Positions 4,759 to 53,512 of a stretch of DNA of 64,000 nucleotides are shown in pieces. The notes beneath the pieces are model-generated. The model did no database searches. It saw only the letters and a program-made list of their open reading frames with translations, and was not told the DNA's origin. The translations under genes were made by a program, and so were the position numbers. Origin of the DNA: Escherichia phage vB_EcoM_Lh1B. The stretch lies in sequence record OK428535.1, one strand, 5' to 3'. The number at the start of each line of letters is the position of its first letter. Within the stretch, counting starts at the first letter, position 1.

Positions 4759-5236
4759 CGTCAATCGCCNCTTGGCCAAAGTGGTGCTTTTTACTGTGCT
4801 GTTGATGGCAGTTGTTGTTGGGCTACGGATTTCTAAGGCACGCGCTGACGAATTCAGCGGGTTCCAGGGCAGTATTAACGGCAGCATTCCAGCATATACC
4901 CGCACCATCAATCTTAATGATAAGCCGTTCTGGTGCAATGCGCGTAAGCTGCTTAAGAAACAGTGTCGTGTAGTTGACATATCCTTCAACGGTCGTGTCG
5001 CTATCGTACACCGTCCTGGCGATAAAGATTGCCCAGGTGGTTGGTGGGGTGCAGTCGACCGTCACAATGGTGACGCGTTATGGCTTATCCCTAATCGTGA
5101 TGAACTATCAGTGGAGAAAATTTGCAGCAAAGATTTCAGGGCCGGTTTTGTACAGCGACCGGATACCAAAACTCTGGCCTCCATCGCTATGTACTACGGT
5201 ATGGAAACCATCAAAACAATCGACTATTCAGAATAA
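4745..5236 (+). CDS. small exported/membrane-anchored 4-Cys protein (paralog family member)
   Basis: Start set to ATG 4745 (GGAG upstream, 14-nt overlap with previous gene); hydrophobic N-terminus; PFWC motif and 4 Cys shared with next gene. Confidence 0.6.
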   Translation: MKCNNVNRXLAKVVLFTVLLMAVVVGLRISKARADEFSGFQGSINGSIPAYTRTINLNDKPFWCNARKLLKKQCRVVDISFNGRVAIVHRPGDKDCPGGWWGAVDRHNGDALWLIPNRDELSVEKICSKDFRAGFVQRPDTKTLASIAMYYGMETIKTIDYSE

Positions 5237-5258
5237 CTCAAAAAATTGAGGTACTATT

Positions 5259-5669
5259 ATGAAACATTTTTTATTACCAGTTTTACTTGCTACTCTGGCC
5301 ATTAGCTTCTTCGCTCGCGCTGGAAGTATCGAGTTACCAAAAGTTGTTAACGATCACGAATACGGCGGGCCGTTCTGGTGCCAGAACTCTGACGTACAAG
5401 GCGGTAGCTGTCAGATCGTTGCGATGTCCGATAACAACCGTTACCTGTTAGTGAAAACGATGGGCGGTGTCGCATGTGGCGACCCTGAATACGGGGTTAT
5501 TAACATGGCAACAGGTCAGGCCGAATCCATGAACTACAATGATAACCAAGCCTGCAGTGGTGAAGCCGTTGCTGAGTTTACTCGCGACCCAGGTGATAAT
5601 GCCCTGACGGTTATCATGTACGACCCTACGATTAAGAAAAACGTGGGCATCAATAAACTCGACTTTTAA
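5259..5669 (+). CDS. small secreted 4-Cys protein (paralog family member)
   Basis: Signal-peptide-like MKHFLLPVLLATLAISFFARAGS; PFWC motif; 4 Cys. Confidence 0.65.
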   Translation: MKHFLLPVLLATLAISFFARAGSIELPKVVNDHEYGGPFWCQNSDVQGGSCQIVAMSDNNRYLLVKTMGGVACGDPEYGVINMATGQAESMNYNDNQACSGEAVAEFTRDPGDNALTVIMYDPTIKKNVGINKLDF

Positions 5670-5682
5670 GTAAGGAAACAAC

Positions 5683-6066
5683 ATGCGTGGACTTATGGGT
5701 ATTATCGCGGCGGTGTTCTTGACCGCTTCTGCTTCAGCTACAACCAGCGTAGAAGATTTACTGCCAGGCACACCGTATCAGTACAACCCGCCTTCATTCG
5801 AAGTCTGTACTGGCGACAATGGCAGATGTGAAGAAGTCAGCCGTCACGACGAGTATATCCTGGTCCACGCAAAGGGCGAGGAAACTTGTCCGGCTGGTTA
5901 CTACTTCTTGTTGAACTCAAAGGCACAAGAGATTGTGCCGGTAGAGACAATAACGTGCGACCCGACGCTTCGCGCGTCGCTCGCTTACAATACGAAAACC
6001 AAACAACGCCTCCTGGTTATTGAACAGCAAGGGGTGGTGCGTGGTTCAGTAGCGCTCGACCAGTAA
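5683..6066 (+). CDS. small secreted 4-Cys protein (paralog family member)
   Basis: Signal-peptide-like MRGLMGIIAAVFLTASASA; C-x7-C plus two further Cys; AAGGAAA upstream. Confidence 0.65.
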   Translation: MRGLMGIIAAVFLTASASATTSVEDLLPGTPYQYNPPSFEVCTGDNGRCEEVSRHDEYILVHAKGEETCPAGYYFLLNSKAQEIVPVETITCDPTLRASLAYNTKTKQRLLVIEQQGVVRGSVALDQ

Positions 6067-6077
6067 CCGAAAAGTTT

Positions 6078-6100
6078 TCAGACAGATGTTATAACGTGAG
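6078..6100 (+). promoter_or_regulatory. class A upstream motif, divergent copy
   Basis: TCAGACAGATGTTATAACGTGAG followed by small hairpin 6096-6117. Confidence 0.35.
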
Positions 6101-6122
6101 ATGACGACCCATCTCACTTTGG

Positions 6123-6166
6123 CCCTGCGGTGATTTCCCCAACACTTAGCCGCAGGGTCCTTTTTA
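6123..6166 (+). terminator. hairpin with T-run (terminator/attenuator-like, long loop)
   Basis: CCCTGCGG...CCGCAGGG stem with about 20-nt loop followed by TCCTTTTT. Confidence 0.4.
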
Positions 6167-6178
6167 ATCGACTATTAC
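6165..6178 (+). promoter_or_regulatory. class B upstream motif
   Basis: TAATCGACTATTAC after hairpin/T-run, before GTAAGGATT RBS region. Confidence 0.45.
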
Positions 6179-6195
6179 TCGTAAGGATTAAGCAA

Positions 6196-6696
6196 ATGAA
6201 CATGAACATTCTCGACGATACCCGTTCTTCTTTCTTTACTCAGATGAACGTCAATCCCGAACGTACCCNTGCCATTCTTTCCACTGGCTGGAAGTTAAAG
6301 CTGTTAGGCGAGTTAACCCTAAACCGCACCGACTGGCCAGAAGAAGCGACCGTATTGATTAACAGCATTCACAGCGAGTGGCTAGATGCTGCGTTGAATG
6401 CCCCACAACTACGTCCGTACTATCGGATGCTTCATGCGGGTTATGAAGTATACCGCAAAGGTTGGTACGCTGCAGCCACTTATTGCAAAACCCCTGAAGG
6501 TCGTGAAGACAACACTGTCGACCACGTATTAGTAAACAATTTCTGGGGCGACCAAATCGAAGTCTTACAACTTTCCACCGGNGACCGTATTCCGGCCTGT
6601 GAGTTATTCGAAACTAACGCACAAATGTACGAACCATATGCAATGATTCGTGGCCGTAAGGTCCCAATCATTTCCCTTATGCATATGGGGCTGTAA
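6196..6696 (+). CDS. hypothetical protein (166 aa)
   Basis: Start set to ATG 6196 downstream of hairpins and TTAATCGACTATTAC motif; track ORF starts further upstream at 6130. Confidence 0.6.
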   Translation: MNMNILDDTRSSFFTQMNVNPERTXAILSTGWKLKLLGELTLNRTDWPEEATVLINSIHSEWLDAALNAPQLRPYYRMLHAGYEVYRKGWYAAATYCKTPEGREDNTVDHVLVNNFWGDQIEVLQLSTXDRIPACELFETNAQMYEPYAMIRGRKVPIISLMHMGL

Positions 6697-12836: not shown

Positions 12837-13085
12837 ATGCAAAAAACAATCATCGGAATAATGGTTAGTTCTTTCTGTGGTTTCCCTACCCCGCAGACAG
12901 AACCCCAATATTTGGGCGCAGGCAAACCTGATCCGGAAGTCCGTAAGTTGCGCGAAGAAGCAAAAGCCAGAGTTCTTACTGAGCTGGAATCGTTGCTTCA
13001 GTCTCCGGTTATTTCACAATGGGGTATGGCAATAGATGTCACTCGAACTGATCGACGAGGCTATTATCTCCCACGACCTGTTTAA
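12837..13085 (+). CDS. hypothetical protein (82 aa)
   Basis: ORF track; 3' end overlaps macrodomain gene start by about 50 nt, so uncertain. Confidence 0.35.
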   Translation: MQKTIIGIMVSSFCGFPTPQTEPQYLGAGKPDPEVRKLREEAKARVLTELESLLQSPVISQWGMAIDVTRTDRRGYYLPRPV

Positions 13086-13536
13086 CGCGCCTGAGCGCTT
13101 CAAGGTCGTTACAGTTAACTGTGTTGGTGCAATGGGAAGGGGCATTGCCTTGGCGTGCCGAGAACGCTTCCCATCGCTTTATAATGACTATCGCCAGAAA
13201 TGTCGTAAAGAGCAAATCGTTATCGGTGAGGTCTATTGTTATCCTGAGGAAGGGGTAATACTCCTTCCTACTAAAACCCATTTTCGCTATAAATCGCAGA
13301 TTTACTATGTCACGTCCGGCATTGATGCGCTGGCGCGACTAGGGGAAGACTTAGAAGGAGGGATTGCGATACCNCCCCTAGGGATGGCTAACGGTTGGTT
13401 ACGTTACCATGAGCGATTGGAAATCTTTATACACTTACAGAAACGACTACAGCACACGGAGCAGACTTATCGATTCTATTTACCAGACACCCTGCTGAGG
13501 GAAGCAGAGAAAATCATCCCAAAAAGTTTCAAATAG
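13036..13536 (+). CDS. macrodomain protein, TARG1/DarG-like
   Basis: DLFNAPERFKVVTVNCVGAMGRGIALACRERFP...IGEVYCYPEEGVILLPTK...GGIAI.PLGMANGWL lines up by eye with the TARG1-type block DLFxCP...C....RMGAGIA...FKKKF...GEV...TK...P.IGCG. Confidence 0.65.
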   Translation: MSLELIDEAIISHDLFNAPERFKVVTVNCVGAMGRGIALACRERFPSLYNDYRQKCRKEQIVIGEVYCYPEEGVILLPTKTHFRYKSQIYYVTSGIDALARLGEDLEGGIAIXPLGMANGWLRYHERLEIFIHLQKRLQHTEQTYRFYLPDTLLREAEKIIPKSFK

Positions 13537-13559
13537 ATATTATTATCAGGGCACATTAC
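13533..13559 (+). promoter_or_regulatory. class A upstream motif, divergent copy
   Basis: ATAGATATTATTATCAGGGCACATTAC resembles ATAGATATTATCTACAGGGAC at 22623. Confidence 0.35.
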
Positions 13560-13635
13560 AAAGGAGCACAATGCCGTCCGCGCCGTCTTCCCGGATTGGG
13601 AACGGAAAAGTATAAATCCGTTTGGAGATACATCC

Positions 13636-14358
13636 ATGTTTCNCACCATTTTATTTCTTCTGGTAGCAGTGACCACATTCAACAGCAACGCTTCTTACCA
13701 GACCACCAGTAACAAACACCAAAAAGAATTCGTCCTTATCCAGGACCAGTTCAATGAGATTAAACCTCTCATCGTCACCGCATCTCGAAAACAAGGCGTA
13801 CATGCCGGGATGCTCGCGACCACCATTTATCGTGAATCCCGTTTTAATAAAAACGTGGGTAAGAATAAATCGAGCAGTGCTAGTAGTGTTGTCCAAATGA
13901 CGACAGGCACTAAACGCTCCATGATACGTCTGTATGGGAAACAACTTAACATCCCAAAGAATGCGGACCTTAATAAACCGAAGTATGCTGTACAGCTTGC
14001 TGCCGTTTACATGAAACACATCGAGGATCATCTGACAAAACAACTCAAACGCAAGCCGAGCACAGCCGAAATCGCTTTAGGCTATCGCTTCGGTGAGGGT
14101 GCCGCTGTTGCGATGATTAAAAAGAAATCACCGGTCGGGAAACGCTGGATGGCNNGCNACNGAAAAGACGCAGCATTCTACGGTGCGAAAATGACACCAC
14201 CGAAAGNTGAAANACNNCNGNTTNNNTTTGNGNAGGNAGNCCANGNCCAACGNGTCGCCGAACTTCAGAAAATCTGGGATACGCTGTACACCAAAATATC
14301 ACCTGCGGCCGGTACATTACTGGCAAATAACACTATCATGAAAGGAGCATTGCTATGA
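13636..14358 (+). CDS. lytic transglycosylase-like protein with N-terminal hydrophobic signal/anchor
   Basis: Hydrophobic N-terminus MF.TILFLLVAVTTF; YRESRFN...SSASSVVQMT...AAVYM resembles the SLT E-S motif block; GGAGA upstream; C-terminal third n-masked. Confidence 0.55.
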   Translation: MFXTILFLLVAVTTFNSNASYQTTSNKHQKEFVLIQDQFNEIKPLIVTASRKQGVHAGMLATTIYRESRFNKNVGKNKSSSASSVVQMTTGTKRSMIRLYGKQLNIPKNADLNKPKYAVQLAAVYMKHIEDHLTKQLKRKPSTAEIALGYRFGEGAAVAMIKKKSPVGKRWMXXXXKDAAFYGAKMTPPKXEXXXXXFXXXXXXQXVAELQKIWDTLYTKISPAAGTLLANNTIMKGALL

Positions 14359-14948
14359 CACTCGTAACACGCCCCTGGTATCCAGGTCTTAAAACAGCCG
14401 NACAAATCACCGCCAAAGACGTTTACGAACTGATTCGCGCGGGTGCGGAACACGTTCAAACCAATCCGAACTACGTTGAGCGTCCTATCGGTGAAGTCGA
14501 TGGGGAAGCTGTCGAAGCACCTGTCTACGTTGAGTACGGCGAATGGTTCGCAGAGAACCACGGTTTCTACGACGCGTTAAACGCGGCGTTTGGTGATGAC
14601 GAAGACGAAGGTATCGAATTCGACTGGAACGTTAATCTGGCGCTGATGTGGATTTGTGGTTTACGTCCAGCAATTAACGAAACCGAAGCAGGCTTCGTGC
14701 TGACGTGGCGACAGTCGGCGGGTTACGATAAAGAACTCGACTTCAAACAGGCGTATATGGATGTGTCGATTGCACTGCAGAAACTGTTCTTCGGCGATCG
14801 TGCTTTCTGCCAGCTCAGCTGGTTGACCATCCTGGAAAAACTGGCAACGTGCCACAAACTGTGGCGAGCAGAAGATGCCCCAGAACATCTTTTCGTGCTC
14901 GAATATGCAGTGGTACCGAACCAGCCGTTCTTTGAGGCCGAAGCGTAA
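14355..14948 (+). CDS. hypothetical protein (197 aa)
   Basis: ATGA overlap with upstream stop; followed by terminator. Confidence 0.65.
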   Translation: MTLVTRPWYPGLKTAXQITAKDVYELIRAGAEHVQTNPNYVERPIGEVDGEAVEAPVYVEYGEWFAENHGFYDALNAAFGDDEDEGIEFDWNVNLALMWICGLRPAINETEAGFVLTWRQSAGYDKELDFKQAYMDVSIALQKLFFGDRAFCQLSWLTILEKLATCHKLWRAEDAPEHLFVLEYAVVPNQPFFEAEA

Positions 14949-14953
14949 TTAAC

Positions 14954-14987
14954 GGTCAGACCTTCGGGTCTGACCNCCTTTTATTTA
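14954..14987 (+). terminator. intrinsic terminator
   Basis: GGTCAGACC-TTCG-GGTCTGACC hairpin followed by CCTTTTATTT. Confidence 0.75.
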
Positions 14988-14999
14988 ATTCTTGGGTGT

Positions 15000-15266
15000 G
15001 TGTTCGTGAAACGTTTAATAAATATTCTCTACTGGATGGAGAAACGCTATAGCCACAACATTCCGATGATGTATAGTTTGTTATTCTCTACGGTAATGTT
15101 GGTGATCGGTGCGATTGTCGCGCATCTGATGGAACTCACGTCTCCATGGGCGCAACTCTTTCTTACCATCTGGATGTTGTTCTCAGGCTACCACATACGT
15201 GGTTTCATAACCCGATTCTTTCGCTGGCGTAGTACCTGGCACGTCTTTAATTCCGACCGTAACTAG
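15000..15266 (+). CDS. small membrane protein (start uncertain)
   Basis: Two hydrophobic helices (LLFSTVMLVIGAIVAHL; LFLTIWMLFSGY); GTG start in track, alternative internal ATG. Confidence 0.4.
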   Translation: MFVKRLINILYWMEKRYSHNIPMMYSLLFSTVMLVIGAIVAHLMELTSPWAQLFLTIWMLFSGYHIRGFITRFFRWRSTWHVFNSDRN

Positions 15267-18531: not shown

Positions 18532-18555
18532 AATTAAAAACTCTCCGAGGTGAGC

Positions 18556-19065
18556 ATGATAGCATCAGTTTTCAAACTGCTTCCATTCTTACAAATGCTG
18601 TGGGAAGCATTTAAACCGGGCGAGGGGGAGAAAGTAACACGAGCCGGGAAAATAGTGACACTAGTGATAGTGGCACTGATCGCGTTCTCTGCATTTGTCT
18701 CATACGCCTACATTGTTCAATACCACACACTGGTTAGCGTTCAATCGCGTACTCAGTATCTGGAGATATCCTATAAGGAGCTAAAAGAGAAGTCCGATCA
18801 TGGCGAAGTGGAGAACAATAAGTTGTACGATCGTCTCTTCACGTGCCTGGGTTCTCGACCGCCATATGATGGTACCAAATCTCCAACAGGAACAGGCACT
18901 GAGGCCGCGGTTCCGCCTGTANAAANCAANCCNGTAANNCCNCCGGCNCCGTTNAATCCNTCTANCCCNCCNNCCAAGAAATACCNGGCCNCTTCTCNCC
19001 CGGTAGGGTCGCAGGAGGCAAATGATTTCCGACAGGAGATTATCAGTACGCTTAATAATCCATGA
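18556..19065 (+). CDS. membrane protein with N-terminal TM helix and Pro-rich C-terminal region
   Basis: Start set to ATG 18556 (GAGGTGA upstream); TM IVTLVIVALIAFSAFVSYAYIV; charged helical segment; n-masked Pro-rich region. Confidence 0.55.
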   Translation: MIASVFKLLPFLQMLWEAFKPGEGEKVTRAGKIVTLVIVALIAFSAFVSYAYIVQYHTLVSVQSRTQYLEISYKELKEKSDHGEVENNKLYDRLFTCLGSRPPYDGTKSPTGTGTEAAVPPVXXXXVXXPXPXNXSXXXXKKYXAXSXPVGSQEANDFRQEIISTLNNP

Positions 19066-19074
19066 GGAGCATAC

Positions 19075-19554
19075 ATGAAGTTATTTTTGGTGGCGATACT
19101 GGTGCTATTGTTGACAGGATGCCCTGGAGCCATCCGTCACGTAGACCCAGATTACTCCTCAACCGGAGATTGGCCTTTTCGTCCTTTAGAACACCCACCA
19201 GTTTATGCTGGTGGGAACAGTCCTGAGGCGAAAAAGCTGGCAGGGAAAATGTTTGTTGCGGATGTGAACGCTTATGCTTATTACGTTTATCTGTACGCTA
19301 AGTCGTTGAACAATTACGCAGAAGCTAAGGGGTGGCGCACCCCGATGGCCGCACCGCTTTGTGAAGAGTTTATTCGCCCCACTCTTCATGATATACCCTC
19401 CGGGATATATCTCGACCCTGGTTCTCGTAGCCCTCAAGACATTAGTCGTGATTTGTCACGACAGATTAAGTCNCTCATTCGCAGCTATCGCGAAGACAGA
19501 GAGTCTTTTAATCATGCCTACGAACGGCACAAAAGTAGTTGCCTTGTGCAATGA
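19075..19554 (+). CDS. putative lipoprotein (159 aa)
   Basis: MKLFLVAILVLLLTGC lipobox-like LTGC; followed by terminator. Confidence 0.6.
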   Translation: MKLFLVAILVLLLTGCPGAIRHVDPDYSSTGDWPFRPLEHPPVYAGGNSPEAKKLAGKMFVADVNAYAYYVYLYAKSLNNYAEAKGWRTPMAAPLCEEFIRPTLHDIPSGIYLDPGSRSPQDISRDLSRQIKXLIRSYREDRESFNHAYERHKSSCLVQ

Positions 19555-19557
19555 AAA

Positions 19558-19598
19558 CTCCCTCTTACCTTCGGGTAAGAGGGGATTTCCTTTTTTAN
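19558..19598 (+). terminator. intrinsic terminator
   Basis: CCTCTTACC-TTCG-GGTAAGAGG hairpin followed by GGATTTCCTTTTTT. Confidence 0.75.
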
Positions 19599-44747: not shown

Positions 44748-47700
44748 TTAGCTTGCTTTCCGACTTACGTTTAACGACGGTGTCGGTTGGGTTATTTCCT
44801 GCCTACGTGCAGCTGAGCCCGGAGGAGGCACATTTGCCGCTTGCTGGATACTACCACCCCGTGTGTCGTTTGCCGCTCTTGGATTTGATTTCAAAATATC
44901 ACGAATCTCTTTCAAGTAATCGCGAGACTGAATCAGTACCTTGAGCTGCTGAACATCTATCGGGTCACCATTCAGCGTTGGCGTCGATGCTGTAGCATCA
45001 GAAGTTGGGGCGGCAATTGGACGAGCTGCTGCGTTAACCTGCGCTTCCGCGCCTGCTTTCACTTTAGCAACATCCGTCNCAGACAATCCTTCTGCTGCAG
45101 CTTGCGACGCTACGGTTTCGGCCGTTGTTGAGGCATCGGATGTTCCGGTACCGCCTGTGGTTGGNGTAGGTGCTGCTGGTCCTACATTACCTGCGGCGGT
45201 AGCCATTGCATCTTGTGCCGCCATGGCCCCTTTCTGCGTCAATGCGTCATCACGACGATTAGCATTATCTGCTGGCAGGTTATCTGCNGGCGACAGACTC
45301 GGGTCATTAGCGGCCGGTGCACCCATTGCCGCTGCCGGGTTAGTTGGTGAATTAGGCGACAATCCTGCAACCATATCCTTCGTCTTGCTCGGAACGGCAG
45401 CGACTTCGTTGGCGGAAATTGCGCCCATGCGGCGGTTCAGTTCCTGAATAACCCCGTCTACGCTACGTATACGACCGTTGCTGTAGAAGACGTTGGCATT
45501 CCCTCTCAGTATTGCGGATGTAATCCCAGGAGCACTCGATGCCGCCATATTCGGATTACGCTTCCATGCTTCCAGGAATTTCTTACCGCCGCCTGCACCC
45601 AGGAAGTGGTACAGATAAGCCACGGCTGGNGGNGGTGCTTTACCACCCAGGTCACGTTGTGCTTTTTGGATGTTGTCACGAATGAACTGTACACCCAAAA
45701 TANCATNCNCCCNCGGGNCCNTCTGGTTAACACGCGGAANACCNAACTTCCNCGAANACCCCTTCATCATCCCGTCCCACGNGCCGTTAACAAACTGGAA
45801 CAACCCAGATGCCGAAGCATACGGGTTTTTAGCGGTGTAGTTAAATCCGGACTCCNCCTTAGCCATTGCTAACGCCACTGCAGGTGGCACGCCCATCATG
45901 TTCGCTGCATCGGTAATCAATGCTTTGATATTCGGAACGTTCAACGCACCCTTTCTACCCAACATTTCTATCGGGTATTTTTCAGCCAGTGACTTATAAT
46001 CACCGTCTTTCACTTCACTCAGGTTAATCGAAGACGAACCAGTGGTCATTGCAGCGTAGTTCCGCACACCGCCAACCGCATCGACGACTTGACCCAAGTT
46101 ACCCGGCACACCACCACTCGTACCCGATGGAATGTAGCCTGAGGCGCGAGCACCGTCAGATGACAAAGAATCTCCCGAACTGATGTTCGAGTCTTCTTCA
46201 TCTTCACCGGTAACTTCCAGAGAACTGCGGTTCTTGTTACGATCCTTCCAGCGTGCACGCTTGCCATTATTTTTAATGGCTTTAATCATGTTACGCACGG
46301 CAAGGTCAGCTTCTTTTGACAACAGCTTCAGCGTTTCCAGCTCGGCTTTGATAGACGATGGGTTCGTGTTAGCATCGCCCCCTAGTGGGTTGATGTTCAC
46401 TTCCCACACCGACTGTCTTATACCGCCTTTCAGGCTGTAGGCAGTTGACATCATCAGACTGATTTCGTACAGGTAGCCGCCGGTCAGTTTCAAGTTCAGC
46501 GGATCGGCTGTTGGCAGGTAACGCTTCACCCCAACCAAATACGTCATGAATACCGGTAAGAAGCGGTCAAAGAACCACCGTTTCAAACGATCTTCTTTCG
46601 GTGTGCCGATAGCGTCTGGAACCATCGAGGCGATGGCTTTCTTCCAGTCACCTTTATAGCTTGCGGTTTTCACGTCGATGTCTTTGATGACGTTCTTCTC
46701 GAATACCGTAATCAACGTGCGTGTGGCGTTGTCGATGGTGGTAAAACCATAAGTCTTCCAACGCACCGACTCCATCGCATTCATGTCTTTCTGGTCGAGC
46801 ACCGCGTTCCAGTCTACCTGAATCTGAACCTGCTCTGTTCCGTCTTCCCAACCTTCTACCTTCGCCAGATTTTTATTACGTTCGTTATCCAACTGTCCAA
46901 GTTTGTTGATAGCTTCATCAACACCCGCGGACTTAATCCCCTCCACGGCCGGTGCCATTCCGTACTTACGNGCTTTCTTATCGTCCATTCTGAACTTGAT
47001 TGCACNCNCGACTTCATTCTGCACTTCCATAACCTCTTCACCGCTCAAAAACTCCTTCGGTGTAAAGGTTACAACGTCCCAGGCTTTCGAGAAGAAGCCT
47101 TGGTTGACTTTGCGTGGGTCTGTTAACGAAGAGAACGCTTTTGCATCCTTAGTCATCTTCATTTTGTTGAAGAGTGTCTGCATGTCCTCTTTCGATACTT
47201 TCTTAGCATCGCCGACGTCAGCCAACTGGATACTATTCGGCATTGATTTCAGTGCCGNAATCCAGCGGAGATAAATCGGAATAAAGCGCTGAAGCATAAA
47301 CGCTTGGAAGGCCAACATCTCGCCTTTTTCCTCGACGTTAATACCGAACCCTTCAGCTAACTTCTGAACGTCTTTTCCACCTAGCCCACGGAGACTGGCT
47401 TGGCCATCTTCCGCGTAAGACACATACTCACGCAATGCGTCTTCTAAGTAACGCGCTTTCGCCCCGTCATCCGACGACCACTTATCGTAATCACGGAAAC
47501 CGTACTGAGCTAAACGCATCTTATCCAGGTACTGGGTATAGGTAGTCGTTGCGATCTTGTACNCGGCGTAACCNNCCNCGGNGNNCNCNCCACCGATAAG
47601 AATTGCCGGCCAACCCACCGCAGTCACGACGGCAGAGGCCCCGGTTCCCACNNCGGNCACCNCGGGTGCCNCCAAACGGGTTACTGCGAACTTACCAACA

Positions 47701-50700
47701 TTCCACGCAGCCTTACCTAAAAGACCTACGGGTTTTAACACACCCCATTTCGTGATAGAACCGAGTATATTACCCACAGTTCCCAAGATACTGACGATGG
47801 GGCCGATGATAGGTAAGCCTTTCACCATATCCCACAGACCGCCAGATTTCCCTTTGGAGCCCTGCNCTTTCTCTTTCTTCNCCTTNCNTTTCNCACNCCA
47901 ACNTTTGAAGAAGTTAAAGTAGTCGCGTTTTTCATCACCTTCAGGCGGCTTGTTACGTTTACCGAACTTCGCAAACATGGTACGAATAATACCATCGTCG
48001 CCACCTGCACGGGATACTGATTCGCGCATGGTGTTAAACCACGACATCTCTTGCAAGCCAATCATTCGGTCCAAGCGTTCGAATAACCTTGCACCTGCTG
48101 ACTTGGCGGCATTCTTCCCTTTGTTGATAACCCTCCCTGCTGCATCACGGGCGGTCTCAAGGTCTTCCTTCGCATCGCCGTAGACTTTACGGCCAGAAAG
48201 GCCACCTTTCGCGTTCAAATGGCTGCGATAAAACTCAGCAACATCGTCATCGCGTCCAGCCAACCGACGTTCAACTTCGTAACGTGTAGCAATGTCGTGT
48301 CGTGCTCCACGATATCCATCGAGCATATCCCCAGCCCGGCCTCGGAAACCACTGAACCAACCNCGCAGGCNGTCGCGTCCACGACCAAAGAACGCTTTTG
48401 TTCTTGACCAACGTCCACCAAAACGTTCAGACAATGACGATTTCGCACGATCATACGCCCCGCGTACTGCACGACCGATCGTACTACCGCCACCCCCGAC
48501 GCCCTTCTCCATTTCCTCTGTCCAACTTTCGTCTTCCGGATCTCCCGGTAAACGTTGGTTCAACAGTTTATAGATACGGATAAGGATGTGGTTGGTTTTC
48601 TTGCCGGTTGATGAGAAGAGACTGAAACCACCACCCCCACCATCTTTACGGCCTTTCCACCAACGCGTCAGTGGGTTGTCGGTAANCATGTCTTTCAGAC
48701 GATCGACACCACGTTTCGCAAAACCGAGCACTTTACCCGGTAAGCTCGTTACACGGTTGAACGCTTTCTGGAGACGTGTCTTTTCTTCGCCTTCCGGAAT
48801 CTCGTTCAGCCAGTCCTTAATCTTACCAACGATGCTGCCTGCTTTCGGTGACAGGAAATCCAGGAACCGCTTCGGTAGCTTAGCCACCTTATTAAAGCCT
48901 AAGCCAATCTTACTGGCCAGACCTTGGGTCAGTGCTTGGATTTTCCCGCCTTTATAGTAGCGGAGTTTACCCGCAGCGGCTAAGTCAGCGGCTGCTAATA
49001 CCAGATTACCTGCGGAGTCAACAATATCACTCCCCAGTTTGATGTCGTCCAGCGTTTTCAGCTGAACCATTTTACCATCAATGACCTGATAGTATTCTCC
49101 AGCTTCCAGACGTGCACCTTGCAGAACAACGTTACCGTGGTCATCGTAAACATCGCGGATACCCAGTAGTCCTTTACCGAAGGAACTTACCGCTTCAAAA
49201 CCACCACGGACACTACCACTGATAAGGCCACGCATCCGGGTTAAGAAACCAGGACCTTCGCCACCTCCCATGCCTGCGACTTTACCGCGTGCCCAACCAC
49301 CGAACTGGTTCAGTTTATTCCAGGCACCCTTAACACCACGTTTCGCAAAGCCGCCGATTCCTGCTGCGGTGTCGAACAANACACCGCCCCAACGACGAAT
49401 AAGCCCATCCTCACCGATGATAATACGACGGCGTCTACCGCCACCGCTACCACCACCAGGGCGAGGCGGACCCATTTCTTCATCACCAGAACCAGCACCC
49501 CCTGCTAACGAAGCCAGAAGAACCCCTTCTTCGTCCATACTTCTGACGTGTTCCAGAATTTTCTGGAGGGTGTCACTGTTGTTGTTACCACGAATCGCTT
49601 CGATGATACCGTCAAAGTTATTCCGTGGTGCTTCTTCGCCGCGGTTACGTTGACTCAACAATTCAACAAAGTTAGTCGAGGTTTTACCGTAGAGAACTGC
49701 GGCTAACTGCCGAGGCGACATTCCGCGGCCTTTACCACCGCCACGTAAANCNGGNGGTAACGACGTGTCATCGGCACCACCACTTGCCCCTTGGTTCATT
49801 CGGCGCAGATAGTCGCCTAACGCCGAACCATTTTGCAGCTTACGTTGAATCTCCTGGTCACGAGTCAATGCGCGCCCGCTGCGTGTCTTACCCATCGCCA
49901 AGTCATTAAACAAGGTATAGGGATCGGACAGGTCTTTATCCACGCCGAAGGTGTCACTCTTCGCGTCGTAGTTAAAGATACCCGCATCACGCAACGCTCG
50001 CTCGCCGTAAATATTCACCGCCTCGTCGATAATTGCCTGACGTTGGGTGATAGATGACTGCACTGTGGAGATTTTGCGAGCCAGTTCGTTACTTAATTCG
50101 TTGCTACCACCGAGTAAGCTGTCTGAATGCCCCTGTAACGCTTCCTTAATGCGTTCTGCGGCGTTTCCTGGCATATACCGATGAAGATGCATCGGGTCTT
50201 TCAGAATCGCTTCTACGTCGAATGCGCGGCCCTGCGAGGCACGTGACTCGATATAGTCGGCAAGATGCTGTCGATCCTTCTGCGAGAGCGTTTTGCCACG
50301 GTCAACAAAATCCACAGTGCTGTTAATGGAATTTTGGAGACGCAGGCGCTGCTCATCGTTTGCAACCGCTTTGCGTACACGGTTACCGACCACTTTGCGG
50401 TCTACGAAACCACGACTGGTGATGTCGTATTCCAGATCGGCATGTTCGCCATAGCCACGACGAACAGATTTGTTAATCTCTGCCAGCCAGGCAGGAATAA
50501 CTTCAACCAGGCTAAGATACGCTTTACGGTCAAACTTCGCCGAACGACTTAACGTTTCGCCATTACGCTCATCGAGGAAGGCTTTCTCACGGTTTAACGG
50601 TTGGACAATACCGAGTTCATTCAGTACCCGGAACAAATCCGCCAACGGTCCTTGTGTTTCGCCTGCGATAGCTGAGTTCGAGATAGAGGAAAGATTACCA

Positions 50701-51722
50701 AAGGTGAACGCGCCCTTCTGCAGGCGTTTCATGACCTCTGGATTTTTCTCCATCTCCTCACGAGTCCATTTCTGGAGTTTCTCGATTTGTGGGCCGAGTA
50801 GTTTCTTCGCAAGGAATCCGCTACCCCATGCAGTTGCTTTATCGCGAGCATTTGTTTTGCGACGTTCGGCAGTCAACGAAGAGCTGTCGCTCATGCCGAA
50901 ATCGTCTTCAACACCCATGCCGAGAACAGACTCTAACAAACCACGACCTTCGCCAAATATACCAGAAATTTTCTTCTTGGTATTTTCGCGAATCATGTCC
51001 ATAAACCCGTCAGCATAACGCAANGGGTTCATCCATTCCGCAGCCTGGCGTTTAACGTTTGCCCAACGGACTTCTGAGAAATCTTCCTTCGCGTAGTCTG
51101 GCAGCGCCGTGTTCTTCACGATGGCTTCTAAAGCAGGCGTGTTACGATCGAACTCCGACTGCTTCATCTTCACGATGTCTTGAATGGCGAACAGGGTACG
51201 GTATTGCAATTCGAGTTTCTTACGCTCGATGTTTAAGAATACCCCACGGCTTAACCCGGTTAGCAGGTTAATGTCTTTCGCCATCCCAATCATGGTTTGG
51301 TGCATTGCATCCGCGCGCATCTCTTTGATGCTGTCGCGGAGCTTATCCTCTACCATGCGGTCCTGCAGTTGACGTTGTTCGTCGGCGTCCTTTGGCACGC
51401 CTGAGAAAACGTCGCCCAGTTCACGATCCATCAATGCCTGATTAGGATCGTAATTTTGGTAATCCAACTGGTCAGATTTTGACCACTTGTCGATGCGCTT
51501 AGTAACTGCATCCGGCAAGTATTTCTTCATCGTCGGACCGAGTTGGCGCGCTTGCATCTTCAGCGTGCGCTCGGTCTTCTCAAGCTCCCCTTTCGTATGG
51601 GCGTAAATGTCCTTTGCTGCAGCTGCCGCTGACTGATAACCCTCGTATGCATCAGCTGCCGGCTTAGGCATCCCCTTGAGGATAACTTGGTCGCGTTTCC
51701 CTTCTGGCCAGATAGTTGACAT
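44748..51722 (-). CDS. giant virion-associated protein with C-proximal lytic transglycosylase domain (about 2320 aa from proposed start)
   Basis: Uninterrupted ORF 44748-51905; start proposed at ATG comp. 51720-51722 (AGGAAG SD-like) because the ORF otherwise overlaps the divergent RNAP gene start; GVPPAVALAMAK.ESGFNYTAKNPYASASGLFQFVNG SLT-like motif about 2040 residues in; Gly/Arg-rich low-complexity tracts. Confidence 0.8.
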   Translation of the reverse strand: MSTIWPEGKRDQVILKGMPKPAADAYEGYQSAAAAAKDIYAHTKGELEKTERTLKMQARQLGPTMKKYLPDAVTKRIDKWSKSDQLDYQNYDPNQALMDRELGDVFSGVPKDADEQRQLQDRMVEDKLRDSIKEMRADAMHQTMIGMAKDINLLTGLSRGVFLNIERKKLELQYRTLFAIQDIVKMKQSEFDRNTPALEAIVKNTALPDYAKEDFSEVRWANVKRQAAEWMNXLRYADGFMDMIRENTKKKISGIFGEGRGLLESVLGMGVEDDFGMSDSSSLTAERRKTNARDKATAWGSGFLAKKLLGPQIEKLQKWTREEMEKNPEVMKRLQKGAFTFGNLSSISNSAIAGETQGPLADLFRVLNELGIVQPLNREKAFLDERNGETLSRSAKFDRKAYLSLVEVIPAWLAEINKSVRRGYGEHADLEYDITSRGFVDRKVVGNRVRKAVANDEQRLRLQNSINSTVDFVDRGKTLSQKDRQHLADYIESRASQGRAFDVEAILKDPMHLHRYMPGNAAERIKEALQGHSDSLLGGSNELSNELARKISTVQSSITQRQAIIDEAVNIYGERALRDAGIFNYDAKSDTFGVDKDLSDPYTLFNDLAMGKTRSGRALTRDQEIQRKLQNGSALGDYLRRMNQGASGGADDTSLXXXLRGGGKGRGMSPRQLAAVLYGKTSTNFVELLSQRNRGEEAPRNNFDGIIEAIRGNNNSDTLQKILEHVRSMDEEGVLLASLAGGAGSGDEEMGPPRPGGGSGGGRRRRIIIGEDGLIRRWGGXLFDTAAGIGGFAKRGVKGAWNKLNQFGGWARGKVAGMGGGEGPGFLTRMRGLISGSVRGGFEAVSSFGKGLLGIRDVYDDHGNVVLQGARLEAGEYYQVIDGKMVQLKTLDDIKLGSDIVDSAGNLVLAAADLAAAGKLRYYKGGKIQALTQGLASKIGLGFNKVAKLPKRFLDFLSPKAGSIVGKIKDWLNEIPEGEEKTRLQKAFNRVTSLPGKVLGFAKRGVDRLKDMXTDNPLTRWWKGRKDGGGGGFSLFSSTGKKTNHILIRIYKLLNQRLPGDPEDESWTEEMEKGVGGGGSTIGRAVRGAYDRAKSSLSERFGGRWSRTKAFFGRGRDXLXGWFSGFRGRAGDMLDGYRGARHDIATRYEVERRLAGRDDDVAEFYRSHLNAKGGLSGRKVYGDAKEDLETARDAAGRVINKGKNAAKSAGARLFERLDRMIGLQEMSWFNTMRESVSRAGGDDGIIRTMFAKFGKRNKPPEGDEKRDYFNFFKXWXXKXKXKKEKXQGSKGKSGGLWDMVKGLPIIGPIVSILGTVGNILGSITKWGVLKPVGLLGKAAWNVGKFAVTRLXAPXVXXVGTGASAVVTAVGWPAILIGXXXXXXGYAXYKIATTTYTQYLDKMRLAQYGFRDYDKWSSDDGAKARYLEDALREYVSYAEDGQASLRGLGGKDVQKLAEGFGINVEEKGEMLAFQAFMLQRFIPIYLRWIXALKSMPNSIQLADVGDAKKVSKEDMQTLFNKMKMTKDAKAFSSLTDPRKVNQGFFSKAWDVVTFTPKEFLSGEEVMEVQNEVXXAIKFRMDDKKXRKYGMAPAVEGIKSAGVDEAINKLGQLDNERNKNLAKVEGWEDGTEQVQIQVDWNAVLDQKDMNAMESVRWKTYGFTTIDNATRTLITVFEKNVIKDIDVKTASYKGDWKKAIASMVPDAIGTPKEDRLKRWFFDRFLPVFMTYLVGVKRYLPTADPLNLKLTGGYLYEISLMMSTAYSLKGGIRQSVWEVNINPLGGDANTNPSSIKAELETLKLLSKEADLAVRNMIKAIKNNGKRARWKDRNKNRSSLEVTGEDEEDSNISSGDSLSSDGARASGYIPSGTSGGVPGNLGQVVDAVGGVRNYAAMTTGSSSINLSEVKDGDYKSLAEKYPIEMLGRKGALNVPNIKALITDAANMMGVPPAVALAMAKXESGFNYTAKNPYASASGLFQFVNGXWDGMMKGXSXKXGXPRVNQXXPXXXXILGVQFIRDNIQKAQRDLGGKAXXPAVAYLYHFLGAGGGKKFLEAWKRNPNMAASSAPGITSAILRGNANVFYSNGRIRSVDGVIQELNRRMGAISANEVAAVPSKTKDMVAGLSPNSPTNPAAAMGAPAANDPSLSXADNLPADNANRRDDALTQKGAMAAQDAMATAAGNVGPAAPXPTTGGTGTSDASTTAETVASQAAAEGLSXTDVAKVKAGAEAQVNAAARPIAAPTSDATASTPTLNGDPIDVQQLKVLIQSRDYLKEIRDILKSNPRAANDTRGGSIQQAANVPPPGSAARRQEITQPTPSLNVSRKAS

Positions 51723-51898
51723 CGCCGACTTCCTGGCAACATTCAGGGTACTGAGTATCGGGCTTCGTTTTTTCTCGTCTTTGGGACGGGGNGGTTCNCC
51801 NAAANCNTCCCANTCGTCGANTNTATCTAAATCNATATCATCNAAACCNTCTTTNCCTCTTTTTGCCNTAANNTTTNTTCCAATTNAGGAGNTTAAAA

Positions 51899-53512
51899 AT
51901 GACAAAGCTAAAATGGGTTNACTTTTACTTGTTAAACNNCAACAAGTCCCTGGTGTCGCATTTAAAACCAGTTACAACAACAGACACCTTTCAGGGACTG
52001 ACGAAAAACTTTCACCCTGAAGGACTGTATTCAACCGAAATTTTTGGCCTCACAGGGAGCGAAGCACGAGACTCAACGTTCTCGTACATTGATATCAAAC
52101 TGGATATCATTTCGCCGACCGTTTGTTTGGCATTGTTCCAGCTGAAACAGCTGTACGAAGAAATCTGTTCCGGGAAGCGATTCGCTATCTGGAATGAGAA
52201 AGAAAAAGATTTCGAGCCGGCTCTGCCCAGTGATAAAGGTGCAGACACCGGCTTCAACTTCTTCCTACGCTACTACGAACAACTGACACCGGGACGCAAC
52301 GAATCGATGCGTCGCGACGAGACAGTCGATTTCTTCAATAAGTTCCGTCCGGTCAGTCTCAGCCGCTATGTGCTGGTTCTGCCTGCGGGATTACGTGATT
52401 TGGTCATTCGTCAGGATGGCCGCGACCAAGAAGAAGAGATTGGCGGACTCTACCGTCGTCTGATTTCTCTGGCGCGTGCAATCCCCGACCGCAGTACGCG
52501 AACGGAACTGACTGACCCGGTTCGCTGGAAGCTCCAACAAACCTTTAATGATATCTGGATGTACTTCTTCAACATCCAGGATGGTAAAGGTGGTTTTGCA
52601 CGTCGTAAAGTGACGTCACGTAAGTTAATGAACGGTACGCGTAACGTACTGTCTTCATTCTCAACCGGTTCCAAGGTCATGGGTCGCGAAGATGCGATTC
52701 GTCCAACGGATACCCGTATCGGTTTGTACCAAACCCTGAAGGCATTACTGCCTGTGGCTCAATACCACATCCGTGAACGTTACCTCAGTAACATCCGGGC
52801 AGGGGACGGCAACTTATACGGCGTTAACACCAAAACACTCAAGCGTGAGTTCCTGGAAGTCTCCGGGCGGGTGTATGACCTTTTCACTACCGACGATGGC
52901 ATCGAAACACTCATCAACAGAATGGAAGCGCGCGAGCTTCGACATAAACCGCTGATGATTGATCCGGACCATTACGTGGCATTAATCTACCAGGACAAAC
53001 GCAGCTTCAAAATCTTTTACGATATTGAAGACCTGCCGGAAGGACGTGACCGCAAGCTTGTCCGCGGACTGAGCTTAGCAGAACTCCTCTATTTGTCAGG
53101 TTACGATATTTGGAATGACTACTTCTCGTTCATCACGCGTTATCCGGTTACGGGACGCGGTTCGACTTACTCCTCGACCATAAGATTGGAGACCACCACC
53201 TCTTCCCTCTATTTGCATGAACTGGAAGACGATTGGGNCACGTTAAAAGANAAGGGNGCAATTNGNTTCCCTGACCGTACCGTGAAAACNTTTGTGGAAT
53301 CCATGGCACCACATCCANCCCNATTAGGGGGNTTGGGNGGNGACNACGANGGNGACACCGGCNCANCAAANAGCCCGATGTCAACCGAAGCGCTCGNGGA
53401 AAATCGGAAGTGGGTCAGTTCGAAAAACTACTGGTTTGCAACAGACGGCAGTTTCAAAATCAATCCGGTTAACAACGTGATTAAAAGAACGACTGCTGCG
53501 CTGTTGAAATGA
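51899..53512 (+). CDS. RNA polymerase beta-prime-like subunit, N-terminal fragment
   Basis: FSYIDIKLDIISPTV and VLVLPAGLRDLVIRQDGRD....IGGLYRRLISL align with E. coli RpoC HIELASPTAHIW and [35 protein letters not shown]; partly resolved GGD-x-(D/E)-GD-TG at 53342-53362 compatible with the DxDGD catalytic loop. Confidence 0.75.
   Translation: MTKLKWVXFYLLNXNKSLVSHLKPVTTTDTFQGLTKNFHPEGLYSTEIFGLTGSEARDSTFSYIDIKLDIISPTVCLALFQLKQLYEEICSGKRFAIWNEKEKDFEPALPSDKGADTGFNFFLRYYEQLTPGRNESMRRDETVDFFNKFRPVSLSRYVLVLPAGLRDLVIRQDGRDQEEEIGGLYRRLISLARAIPDRSTRTELTDPVRWKLQQTFNDIWMYFFNIQDGKGGFARRKVTSRKLMNGTRNVLSSFSTGSKVMGREDAIRPTDTRIGLYQTLKALLPVAQYHIRERYLSNIRAGDGNLYGVNTKTLKREFLEVSGRVYDLFTTDDGIETLINRMEARELRHKPLMIDPDHYVALIYQDKRSFKIFYDIEDLPEGRDRKLVRGLSLAELLYLSGYDIWNDYFSFITRYPVTGRGSTYSSTIRLETTTSSLYLHELEDDWXTLKXKXAIXFPDRTVKXFVESMAPHPXXLGXLXXDXXXDTGXXXSPMSTEALXENRKWVSSKNYWFATDGSFKINPVNNVIKRTTAALLK

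Follow-up and report, generated by a model that had tools for sequence, protein, structure and literature searches.

The stretch of DNA treated here, 64,000 nucleotides from Escherichia phage vB_EcoM_Lh1B (record OK428535.1; called the window below), groups with Seoulvirus, the SPN3US-like jumbo Salmonella phages, and carries at positions 13636..14358 of the plus strand a gene whose product is very probably a lytic transglycosylase exported through the Sec pathway. The coding sequence begins with ATG and specifies 240 amino acids (aa) plus a stop codon. The product is the ortholog of SPN3US gp198 (SPN3US_0198, YP_009153492), by which name it is called throughout, and is ~96% identical to it and ~99% identical to that of SPLA3; across the 2.5 kb surrounding the open reading frame (ORF), DNA identity is 98% with SPLA3 and SPFM, and 96% with SPN3US. 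The initial annotation of the window had proposed here an endolysin candidate of 240 aa with the N-terminus MF(R)TILFLLVAVTTFNSNA and a block YRESRFN...SSASSVVQMTTGT, and both elements are present in the ORF. The gene and its label already stand in public records ("putative endolysin" in GenBank, "transglycosylase" in RefSeq and in SPLA3), signal-peptide endolysins and signal-arrest-release (SAR) endolysins are established classes, and the SLT fold is a standard one.

Where does translation of gp198 start? A Shine-Dalgarno sequence, GGAGA, can be read at 13624..13628 (+), 7 nucleotides before the ATG, which is the first start codon downstream of the upstream stop in the window, and the N-termini of 18 out of 18 homologs follow the pattern M-[F/L/M/I]-R. 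An upstream in-frame TTG, present in SPN3US, would add 13 residues; it was ruled out as a start because the ATG comes first after the stop here and all the homologs begin with MxR. An ORF of 40 aa at 13556..13678 on the minus strand lies antisense to the start of gp198. It is annotated as gp197 in SPN3US and, overlapping both the gp198 start and an intergenic hairpin, looks like an over-call. There are 21 ambiguous bases (N) within the gp198 ORF, 20 of them in 14154-14253, and complete protein sequences from relatives were used for the analyses. The Ns are attributed to base-calling ambiguity and not to a lesion, because the ORF is just as long as its counterparts in SPLA3 and SPN3US, only 6 of its 702 called bases depart from those of SPLA3, and similar clusters of N occur elsewhere; a broken gp198 gene was thus ruled out. 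The whole window contains 315 N bases, clustered at up to ~24 per kb. Several deposited SPFM genomes are similarly fragmented in BLAST, and their gene calls for the region are broken into odd "hypothetical proteins" (e.g., P0010-P0016).

The catalytic domain and its relatives

The SLT (GH23-type, goose-lysozyme-like) catalytic domain of gp198 is encoded at 13771..14127 (+) and corresponds to aa 46-164, within a folded core of about aa 30-190. Pfam PF01464 (SLT) is matched over aa 46-164 with 27.6 bits against a gathering cut-off of 21.3 (E 2.3e-6), PHROG 4067 "transglycosylase" is matched with an E value of 2.4e-53, and the best sequence match in the Protein Data Bank (PDB) is gp144 of phage phiKZ (3BKH, 9xps_S; E ~1e-7). 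In an AlphaFold2 model built from 18 homologs, the core residues 30-190 have a predicted local distance difference test score (pLDDT) of ~90, and a Foldseek search of the PDB with this model again puts gp144 on top, followed by MltE, MltC, Slt, MltF, goose-type lysozymes and phi6 lysin. The SLT resemblance noticed in the initial annotation is thus borne out by profile, sequence and fold alike, and the lysozyme-like fold, on which that proposal hung, is present in the model.

Glu67 (codon GAA, 13834..13836, +) is predicted from the alignment to be the catalytic acid of the E-S motif, YRESRFN. Residues E67, S68, S80, A82, M88, T92, Y150 and G153 are invariant in the 18 homologs, Q87 is retained in 16 of the 18, and the motifs SSA...Q...GT and Y-x-x-G are also kept in the family. 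E67-S68 of gp198 align with Glu115-Ser116 of phiKZ gp144, of which Glu115 is the catalytic residue, and with E2005-S2006 of gp239, a giant tail protein encoded in the window. The SLT profile, the E-S motif and the goose-lysozyme-like, all-alpha fold of the model are all found in gp198, which is on these grounds a predicted family-1 lytic transglycosylase. gp239, named tape measure protein by Thomas (2016), carries an SLT domain of its own at about 45420..45902 (-), within an ORF of 44748..51905. This domain is 26% identical to gp198 and is a paralog encoded in a separate ORF, so that the small protein and the giant virion transglycosylase are distinct, as had been claimed. gp198 is absent from the SPN3US virion proteome so far as this is covered by the accessible text and the readable part of its tables.

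It is to be noted that gp198 and phiKZ gp144 come from related jumbo phages and have the catalytic-domain family and the ES...SSA...Q...GT motifs in common, aa 44-160 of gp198 aligning with aa 92-210 of gp144 (PDB 3BKH) at E 1e-7. However, the two are only ~25% identical, and gp198 has an insertion of ~11 residues and a longer C-terminal tail. gp144 carries an N-terminal PG_binding_1 domain and no signal peptide, whereas gp198 carries a signal peptide and no binding domain. Moreover, gp144 needs the holin gp142, with which it is encoded in a cassette together with spanins and the regulator gp143, whereas the gene for gp198 lies outside such a cassette. The marks of a gp144-type modular endolysin, a PG_binding_1 domain and a cassette placed after a RuvC-like gene, are thus both missing from gp198. 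gp144 is also present in the virion neck (PDB 9xps). The architecture of gp198 itself is shared by gp16 of Serratia phage Moabite (QDB71048) and by small signal-bearing SLT proteins of Erwinia, Serratia and Klebsiella jumbo phages, but proteins of the Moabite gp16 type are 24-30% identical to gp198 and lack the insertion and the C-terminal tail of the gp198 clade, and the neighbouring genes in Moabite differ.

The predicted N-terminal export signal

A type I Sec signal peptide is predicted for aa 1-19 of gp198 (13636..13692, +), with M-F-R as the n-region, TILFLLVAVTTF as the h-region and NSNA as the c-region. Arg3 and a 12-residue core rich in L/I/V/F are followed by the site S-N-A|S, at which cleavage is predicted between Ala19 and Ser20. 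Ala19 is invariant in the 18 homologs, the -3 residue is S, A, V or T in all of them, and the +1 residue is Ser in 17 and Thr in one; the family pattern can be written as M-[F/L/M/I]-R, ~12 strongly hydrophobic residues, and [N/S/A]-[S/A/V/T]-x-Ala|Ser. In the AlphaFold2 model, pLDDT over this region is ~45-51. The design recurs, with different sequences, in far more distant jumbo-phage relatives, where the predicted cleavage sites are PATA|SVS in Moabite gp16, ALA|STS in RisingSun gp104, VFA|STS in Phobos gp192 and AAA|ITS in Huxley gp208. When 1.84 billion representative proteins were searched with a profile, a signal-like N-terminus was found in 45 of the 51 small proteins (≤320 aa) among the best 150 hits, the remainder of which are mostly tail proteins of 2,100-2,600 aa with the domain near the C-terminus.

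The initial annotation had taken the hydrophobic N-terminus on a muralytic enzyme as the architecture of either secreted or SAR-type endolysins, and had called for a check between signal peptide and SAR segment, which was made here by a rule-based comparison. The SAR references were P1 Lyz and R21 of phage 21, whose sequences as used here agree with phage records at 99.5% and 100% identity, respectively. As is predicted for gp198, SAR endolysins are muralytic, use the Sec pathway via an N-terminal hydrophobic segment and are independent of a large-hole holin. Unlike the N-terminus of gp198, which has a Leu/Phe/Val-rich core followed by an AXA-type site, their Gly/Ala-rich segments are left uncleaved and are released on depolarisation of the membrane; P1 Lyz and R21 also have a T4-lysozyme-like fold instead of the SLT fold. 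In numbers, the uncharged core is 12 residues long in gp198 versus 20 in P1 Lyz and R21, its content of G/A/S/T is 33% versus 55-65%, and that of L/I/V/F/M is 67% versus 35-40%. The best 19-residue window has an insertion energy estimated with the Hessa scale at about +5.4 kcal/mol in gp198 versus 0.5-0.8 in the two references, and the -3/-1 site conserved after the core of gp198 has no conserved counterpart in them. At such a length, the gp198 core would be too short to span the membrane. A lipoprotein signal and a Tat signal were ruled out, as the sequence lacks both Cys and a twin-arginine motif. Because of the short L/F/V-rich core and the conserved -3/-1 site, together with the lack of a lipobox Cys and of twin arginines, the N-terminus is read as a cleavable Sec signal peptide, which its features fit, and not as a SAR anchor; that it is actually cleaved is what we infer. 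Thus, of the earlier alternatives, an export signal on a protein of muralytic fold was found, with the features of a Sec signal, and those of a SAR segment were not. The predicted mature protein has 221 aa, a mass of 24.7 kDa and an isoelectric point (pI) of 10.1.

Neighbouring genes and other muralytic candidates

Directly upstream of gp198 lies a gene for a macro-domain (Appr-1-p processing) protein (13036..13536, +), and downstream of it the gene for the gp199 ortholog (14355..14948, +), an acidic protein of 197 aa (pI 4.4) with no signal peptide. The gene order macro-SLT-gp199 is also seen in Erwinia phages Huxley and Phobos. The ATG of gp199 overlaps the stop codon of gp198 (ATGA), and the two are therefore coupled in translation; a terminator-like hairpin, found by a consensus scan only, closes the unit at 14954..14975 (+) with a 9-bp stem containing six G-C pairs and a following T-run. 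gp199 is kept beside the SLT gene in Huxley and even in the distant Phobos (hhalign probability 95.8%). Its AlphaFold2 model has a pLDDT of 87 and no fold match in the PDB, and hhalign of its family against the phiKZ regulator gp143 gave a probability of 0.1%, that is, the two are unrelated. One could imagine that gp198 and gp199 make up a new lysis-timing module, in which the acidic gp199 would bind the basic pre-enzyme in the cytoplasm as a chaperone or anti-export factor and gate its Sec export, to serve as a holin-independent lysis clock of enterobacterial jumbo phages. Such a module, which would differ from the holin/regulator cassette of phiKZ, is a highly speculative idea to which we give very little credence.

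Further downstream, the gp200 ortholog (15000..15266, +; 86-88 aa) has two predicted transmembrane (TM) segments and a basic C-terminal tail with five K/R against one D/E, which make it a candidate holin or pinholin. Its translation may begin at either of two GTG codons (15000 or 15006), its match to the two-TM family DUF4231 is weak and sub-threshold, and it is called "hypothetical" in the records inspected. Huxley has two two-TM proteins at this position. The gp204 ortholog (18550..19065, +), with an N-terminal TM anchor, a helical segment and a Pro-rich C-terminus, and the gp205 ortholog (19075..19554, +), a lipoprotein with the lipobox LLTG|C, are followed by a terminator-like hairpin at 19559-19584. 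The architecture of the two is reminiscent of an i-spanin and an o-spanin encoded separately. Of 41 records matched, 40 were listed, and each of these has them as "hypothetical". A firm spanin assignment was nevertheless dropped, since it would depend on architecture only, no BLAST similarity to the phiKZ pairs was found, and the phiKZ pair in the syntenic position, gp156.1/gp156 with the same architecture and the lipobox LISG|C, is not a validated one; the validated spanins of phiKZ are gp141/141.1. At the other side of gp198, around 4870..6580 (+), the orthologs of gp180-183 are four small genes, all with signal-peptide-like or lipobox-like N-termini.

In phiKZ, gp140 is RuvC-like, and the spanins, the holin gp142 and the regulator gp143 come after it. 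In SPN3US, phiKZ gp139 and gp140 have gp84 and gp85 as their orthologs, ~90 kb away from gp198, and no BLASTP match to phiKZ gp141, 141.1, 142 or 143 turned up among all the ORFs of SPN3US. Outside the window, gp86, with a soluble N-terminal domain of ~100 aa and then two TM segments, and gp87, of 212 aa (SPN3US JN641803 84978-86286), directly follow the RuvC-like gene. They are thus positional candidates for the holin and the regulator of SPN3US, with no detectable sequence similarity to those of phiKZ. In tblastn, gp86 reaches no further than the SPN3US, Erwinia and Cronobacter group.

Examination of the whole SPN3US and SPLA3 genomes also brought up two further muralytic candidates, both outside the window. 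gp156 (SPN3US JN641803 135425-136042) combines GH108 (Glyco_hydro_108) with PG_binding_3 and has no signal peptide. The endolysins of N4-like phages and of many others are built in this way (the N4 gp61 type), and in jumbo phage Goslar such a protein bears the label "endolysin". Proteins of this type are small muralytic enzymes like gp198 and are called endolysin in some records, but belong to an unrelated fold family. The gp156 gene sits within a block of tail and baseplate genes, next to gp158, and genes 198 and 156 are jointly conserved in Seoulvirus, Machinavirus and Wellington-like phages. gp158 (SPN3US JN641803 136982-137497) is an M15-like hydrolase with a match to PHROG 894 "endolysin" and a weak M15 peptidase signal; according to Thomas (2016), it was detected in virions and not in tailless particles, which makes it tail-associated. 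The gene for a DUF1353 protein separates those for gp156 and gp158, and the opposite strand encodes the lipoprotein gp159 (lipobox LLAG|C).

Possible roles in host lysis

How would gp198 act in an infected cell? It would be made as a pre-protein that passes through SecYEG and is processed by signal peptidase I, with the cut after Ala19, which would release a soluble, basic periplasmic enzyme with the family-1 lytic-transglycosylase fold, and this enzyme, using Glu67 as the catalytic acid, would cut the host sacculus at its MurNAc-GlcNAc bonds. In evolution, a catalytic domain of the gp144 type may have had its N-terminal peptidoglycan-binding domain swapped for an export signal, and with the export signal in place of the binding domain, the wall would therefore be reached without a holin. 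Most likely, gp198 would then weaken the wall late in infection together with the candidate endolysin gp156, a holin and a spanin pair. The analysis shows the gene, its domain, fold and catalytic motif, a signal-peptide design that is kept across genera, and the coupling to gp199; export, cleavage, enzymatic activity, expression timing and the role in lysis are all inferred, and we put the chances of the whole chain, from Sec export and cleavage to periplasmic action as a holin-independent second endolysin beside gp156, at about even. As for timing, the phiKZ early motif, TATATTAC, was not enriched (4 hits versus 1.35 expected), inspection by eye of the regions upstream of late genes showed no shared motif, and a sigma-70 promoter scan stayed at background level.

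Several points argue for such a function. phiKZ gp144 is a proven endolysin, and gp198 is paired with phiKZ ORF144 in a supplementary table of Thomas (2016). The annotators of the Center for Phage Technology identified a single endolysin in Moabite, the signal-bearing homolog. By analogy, the closest functional precedent for gp198 is Tgl of Kayvirus, a signal-peptide transglycosylase that works as an additional endolysin next to LysK (PMC7150955). Like gp198, whose export is predicted, Tgl is a protein with a signal peptide and a lytic-transglycosylase motif, encoded by a large myovirus a few genes away from lysis genes and exported by the host Sec system (PMC7150955). Unlike gp198, which is known from sequence, Tgl acts on a Gram-positive host and has a role with experimental support, and the likeness is one of architecture. 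The holin-like gp200 and the spanin-like gp204/gp205 all lie within 5.5 kb of gp198, in an order retained in Huxley, and this linkage of gp198 to candidate lysis genes is suggestive without being decisive. It is not general, however, because no TM gene adjoins the homolog in Moabite, RisingSun or Phobos.

This lack of a neighbouring holin-like gene is one of several points that weigh on the other side. Outside the window, the genome holds gp156, an endolysin candidate of canonical type that could suffice by itself. A freely soluble and active transglycosylase exported before the time of lysis would risk premature lysis, and no mechanism for its control is evident. phiKZ gp144 matches the SPN3US tail protein gp239 (8.5e-17) better than gp198 (6.5e-10), and the architecture seen in gp204/gp205 also occurs in the syntenic phiKZ pair mentioned above. 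The signal peptide and its cleavage were judged by rules and not by a trained predictor, and a literature search for experiments on SPN3US gp198 or its signal peptide found none.

Could gp198 then be the principal or even the sole endolysin, with gp156 being a virion- or tail-associated enzyme for entry? The labels "putative endolysin" in GenBank and RefSeq, the homology to gp144, the case of Moabite and the place of the gp156 gene in a tail/baseplate block beside the tail-associated gp158 would speak for it. However, gp156 shows the complete domain make-up of bona fide endolysins (GH108 and PG_binding_3), nothing in the accessible text points to gp156 as a virion protein, and the two genes are conserved together in the three groups of phages named above, so that we hold this to be unlikely. 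To call gp198 "the" endolysin is likewise doubtful because gp156 and gp158 are further muralytic candidates and gp144 is closer to gp239; the word endolysin is plausible for gp198, yet it is neither the sole nor the best-supported candidate. What remains of the endolysin candidate in the initial annotation is a protein of muralytic fold with a database label to match, for which an accessory, holin-independent endolysin is a better reading than the only one of the phage.

A SAR-type endolysin, tethered uncleaved until a pinholin such as gp200 depolarises the membrane, is suggested by the hydrophobic N-terminus on a muralytic enzyme and by the small two-TM gp200 with its basic C-terminus two genes downstream, which is the pairing of genes in phage 21. 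It is very improbable in view of the short core, poor in G/A/S/T and rich in L/I/V/F/M, of its high estimated insertion energy, and of the conserved -3/-1 motif with the invariant Ala19. Small SLT proteins with a signal peptide are also the architecture of specialised transglycosylases, e.g., those of secretion systems. gp198 might accordingly remodel periplasmic peptidoglycan outside lysis, for swelling of the cell, for a phage structure that spans the envelope, or for a change of the wall against superinfection, all the more since gp156 is already present for lysis, the phage encodes several other exported proteins (gp180-183, gp90 and gp159), and the homologs of Moabite, RisingSun and Phobos are not beside holin-like genes. 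But the closest characterised relative of gp198 is an endolysin, no phage structure that needs gp198 is known, and no other endolysin was found in Moabite; such remodelling therefore seems to us an improbable function.

How jumbo phages lyse their hosts has been worked out only recently and for phiKZ, with its holin-dependent gp144, and the enterobacterial relatives have the same catalytic domain behind a predicted Sec signal, together with a separate canonical endolysin candidate. In a literature search, we found no description of a gp144-type domain in enterobacterial jumbo phages that stands behind a conserved cleavable signal in place of the peptidoglycan-binding domain, nor of its coupling to a conserved acidic partner, nor of its co-existence with a GH108 endolysin. 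To our knowledge, the cases described so far in Gram-negative hosts are of SAR types. A contribution of gp198 to lysis would mean a soluble endolysin processed by signal peptidase in a Gram-negative host, and would pose the question of what keeps lysis from coming too early. The mature enzyme (24.7 kDa, pI ~10) is also a candidate antibacterial against Salmonella. As for annotation, gp198 should no longer count as the only endolysin of SPN3US-like phages, and the paper on a related phage, pSal-SNUABM-04, also names a lytic glycosylase, an N-acetylmuramidase and a lysozyme fused to the tape measure protein.

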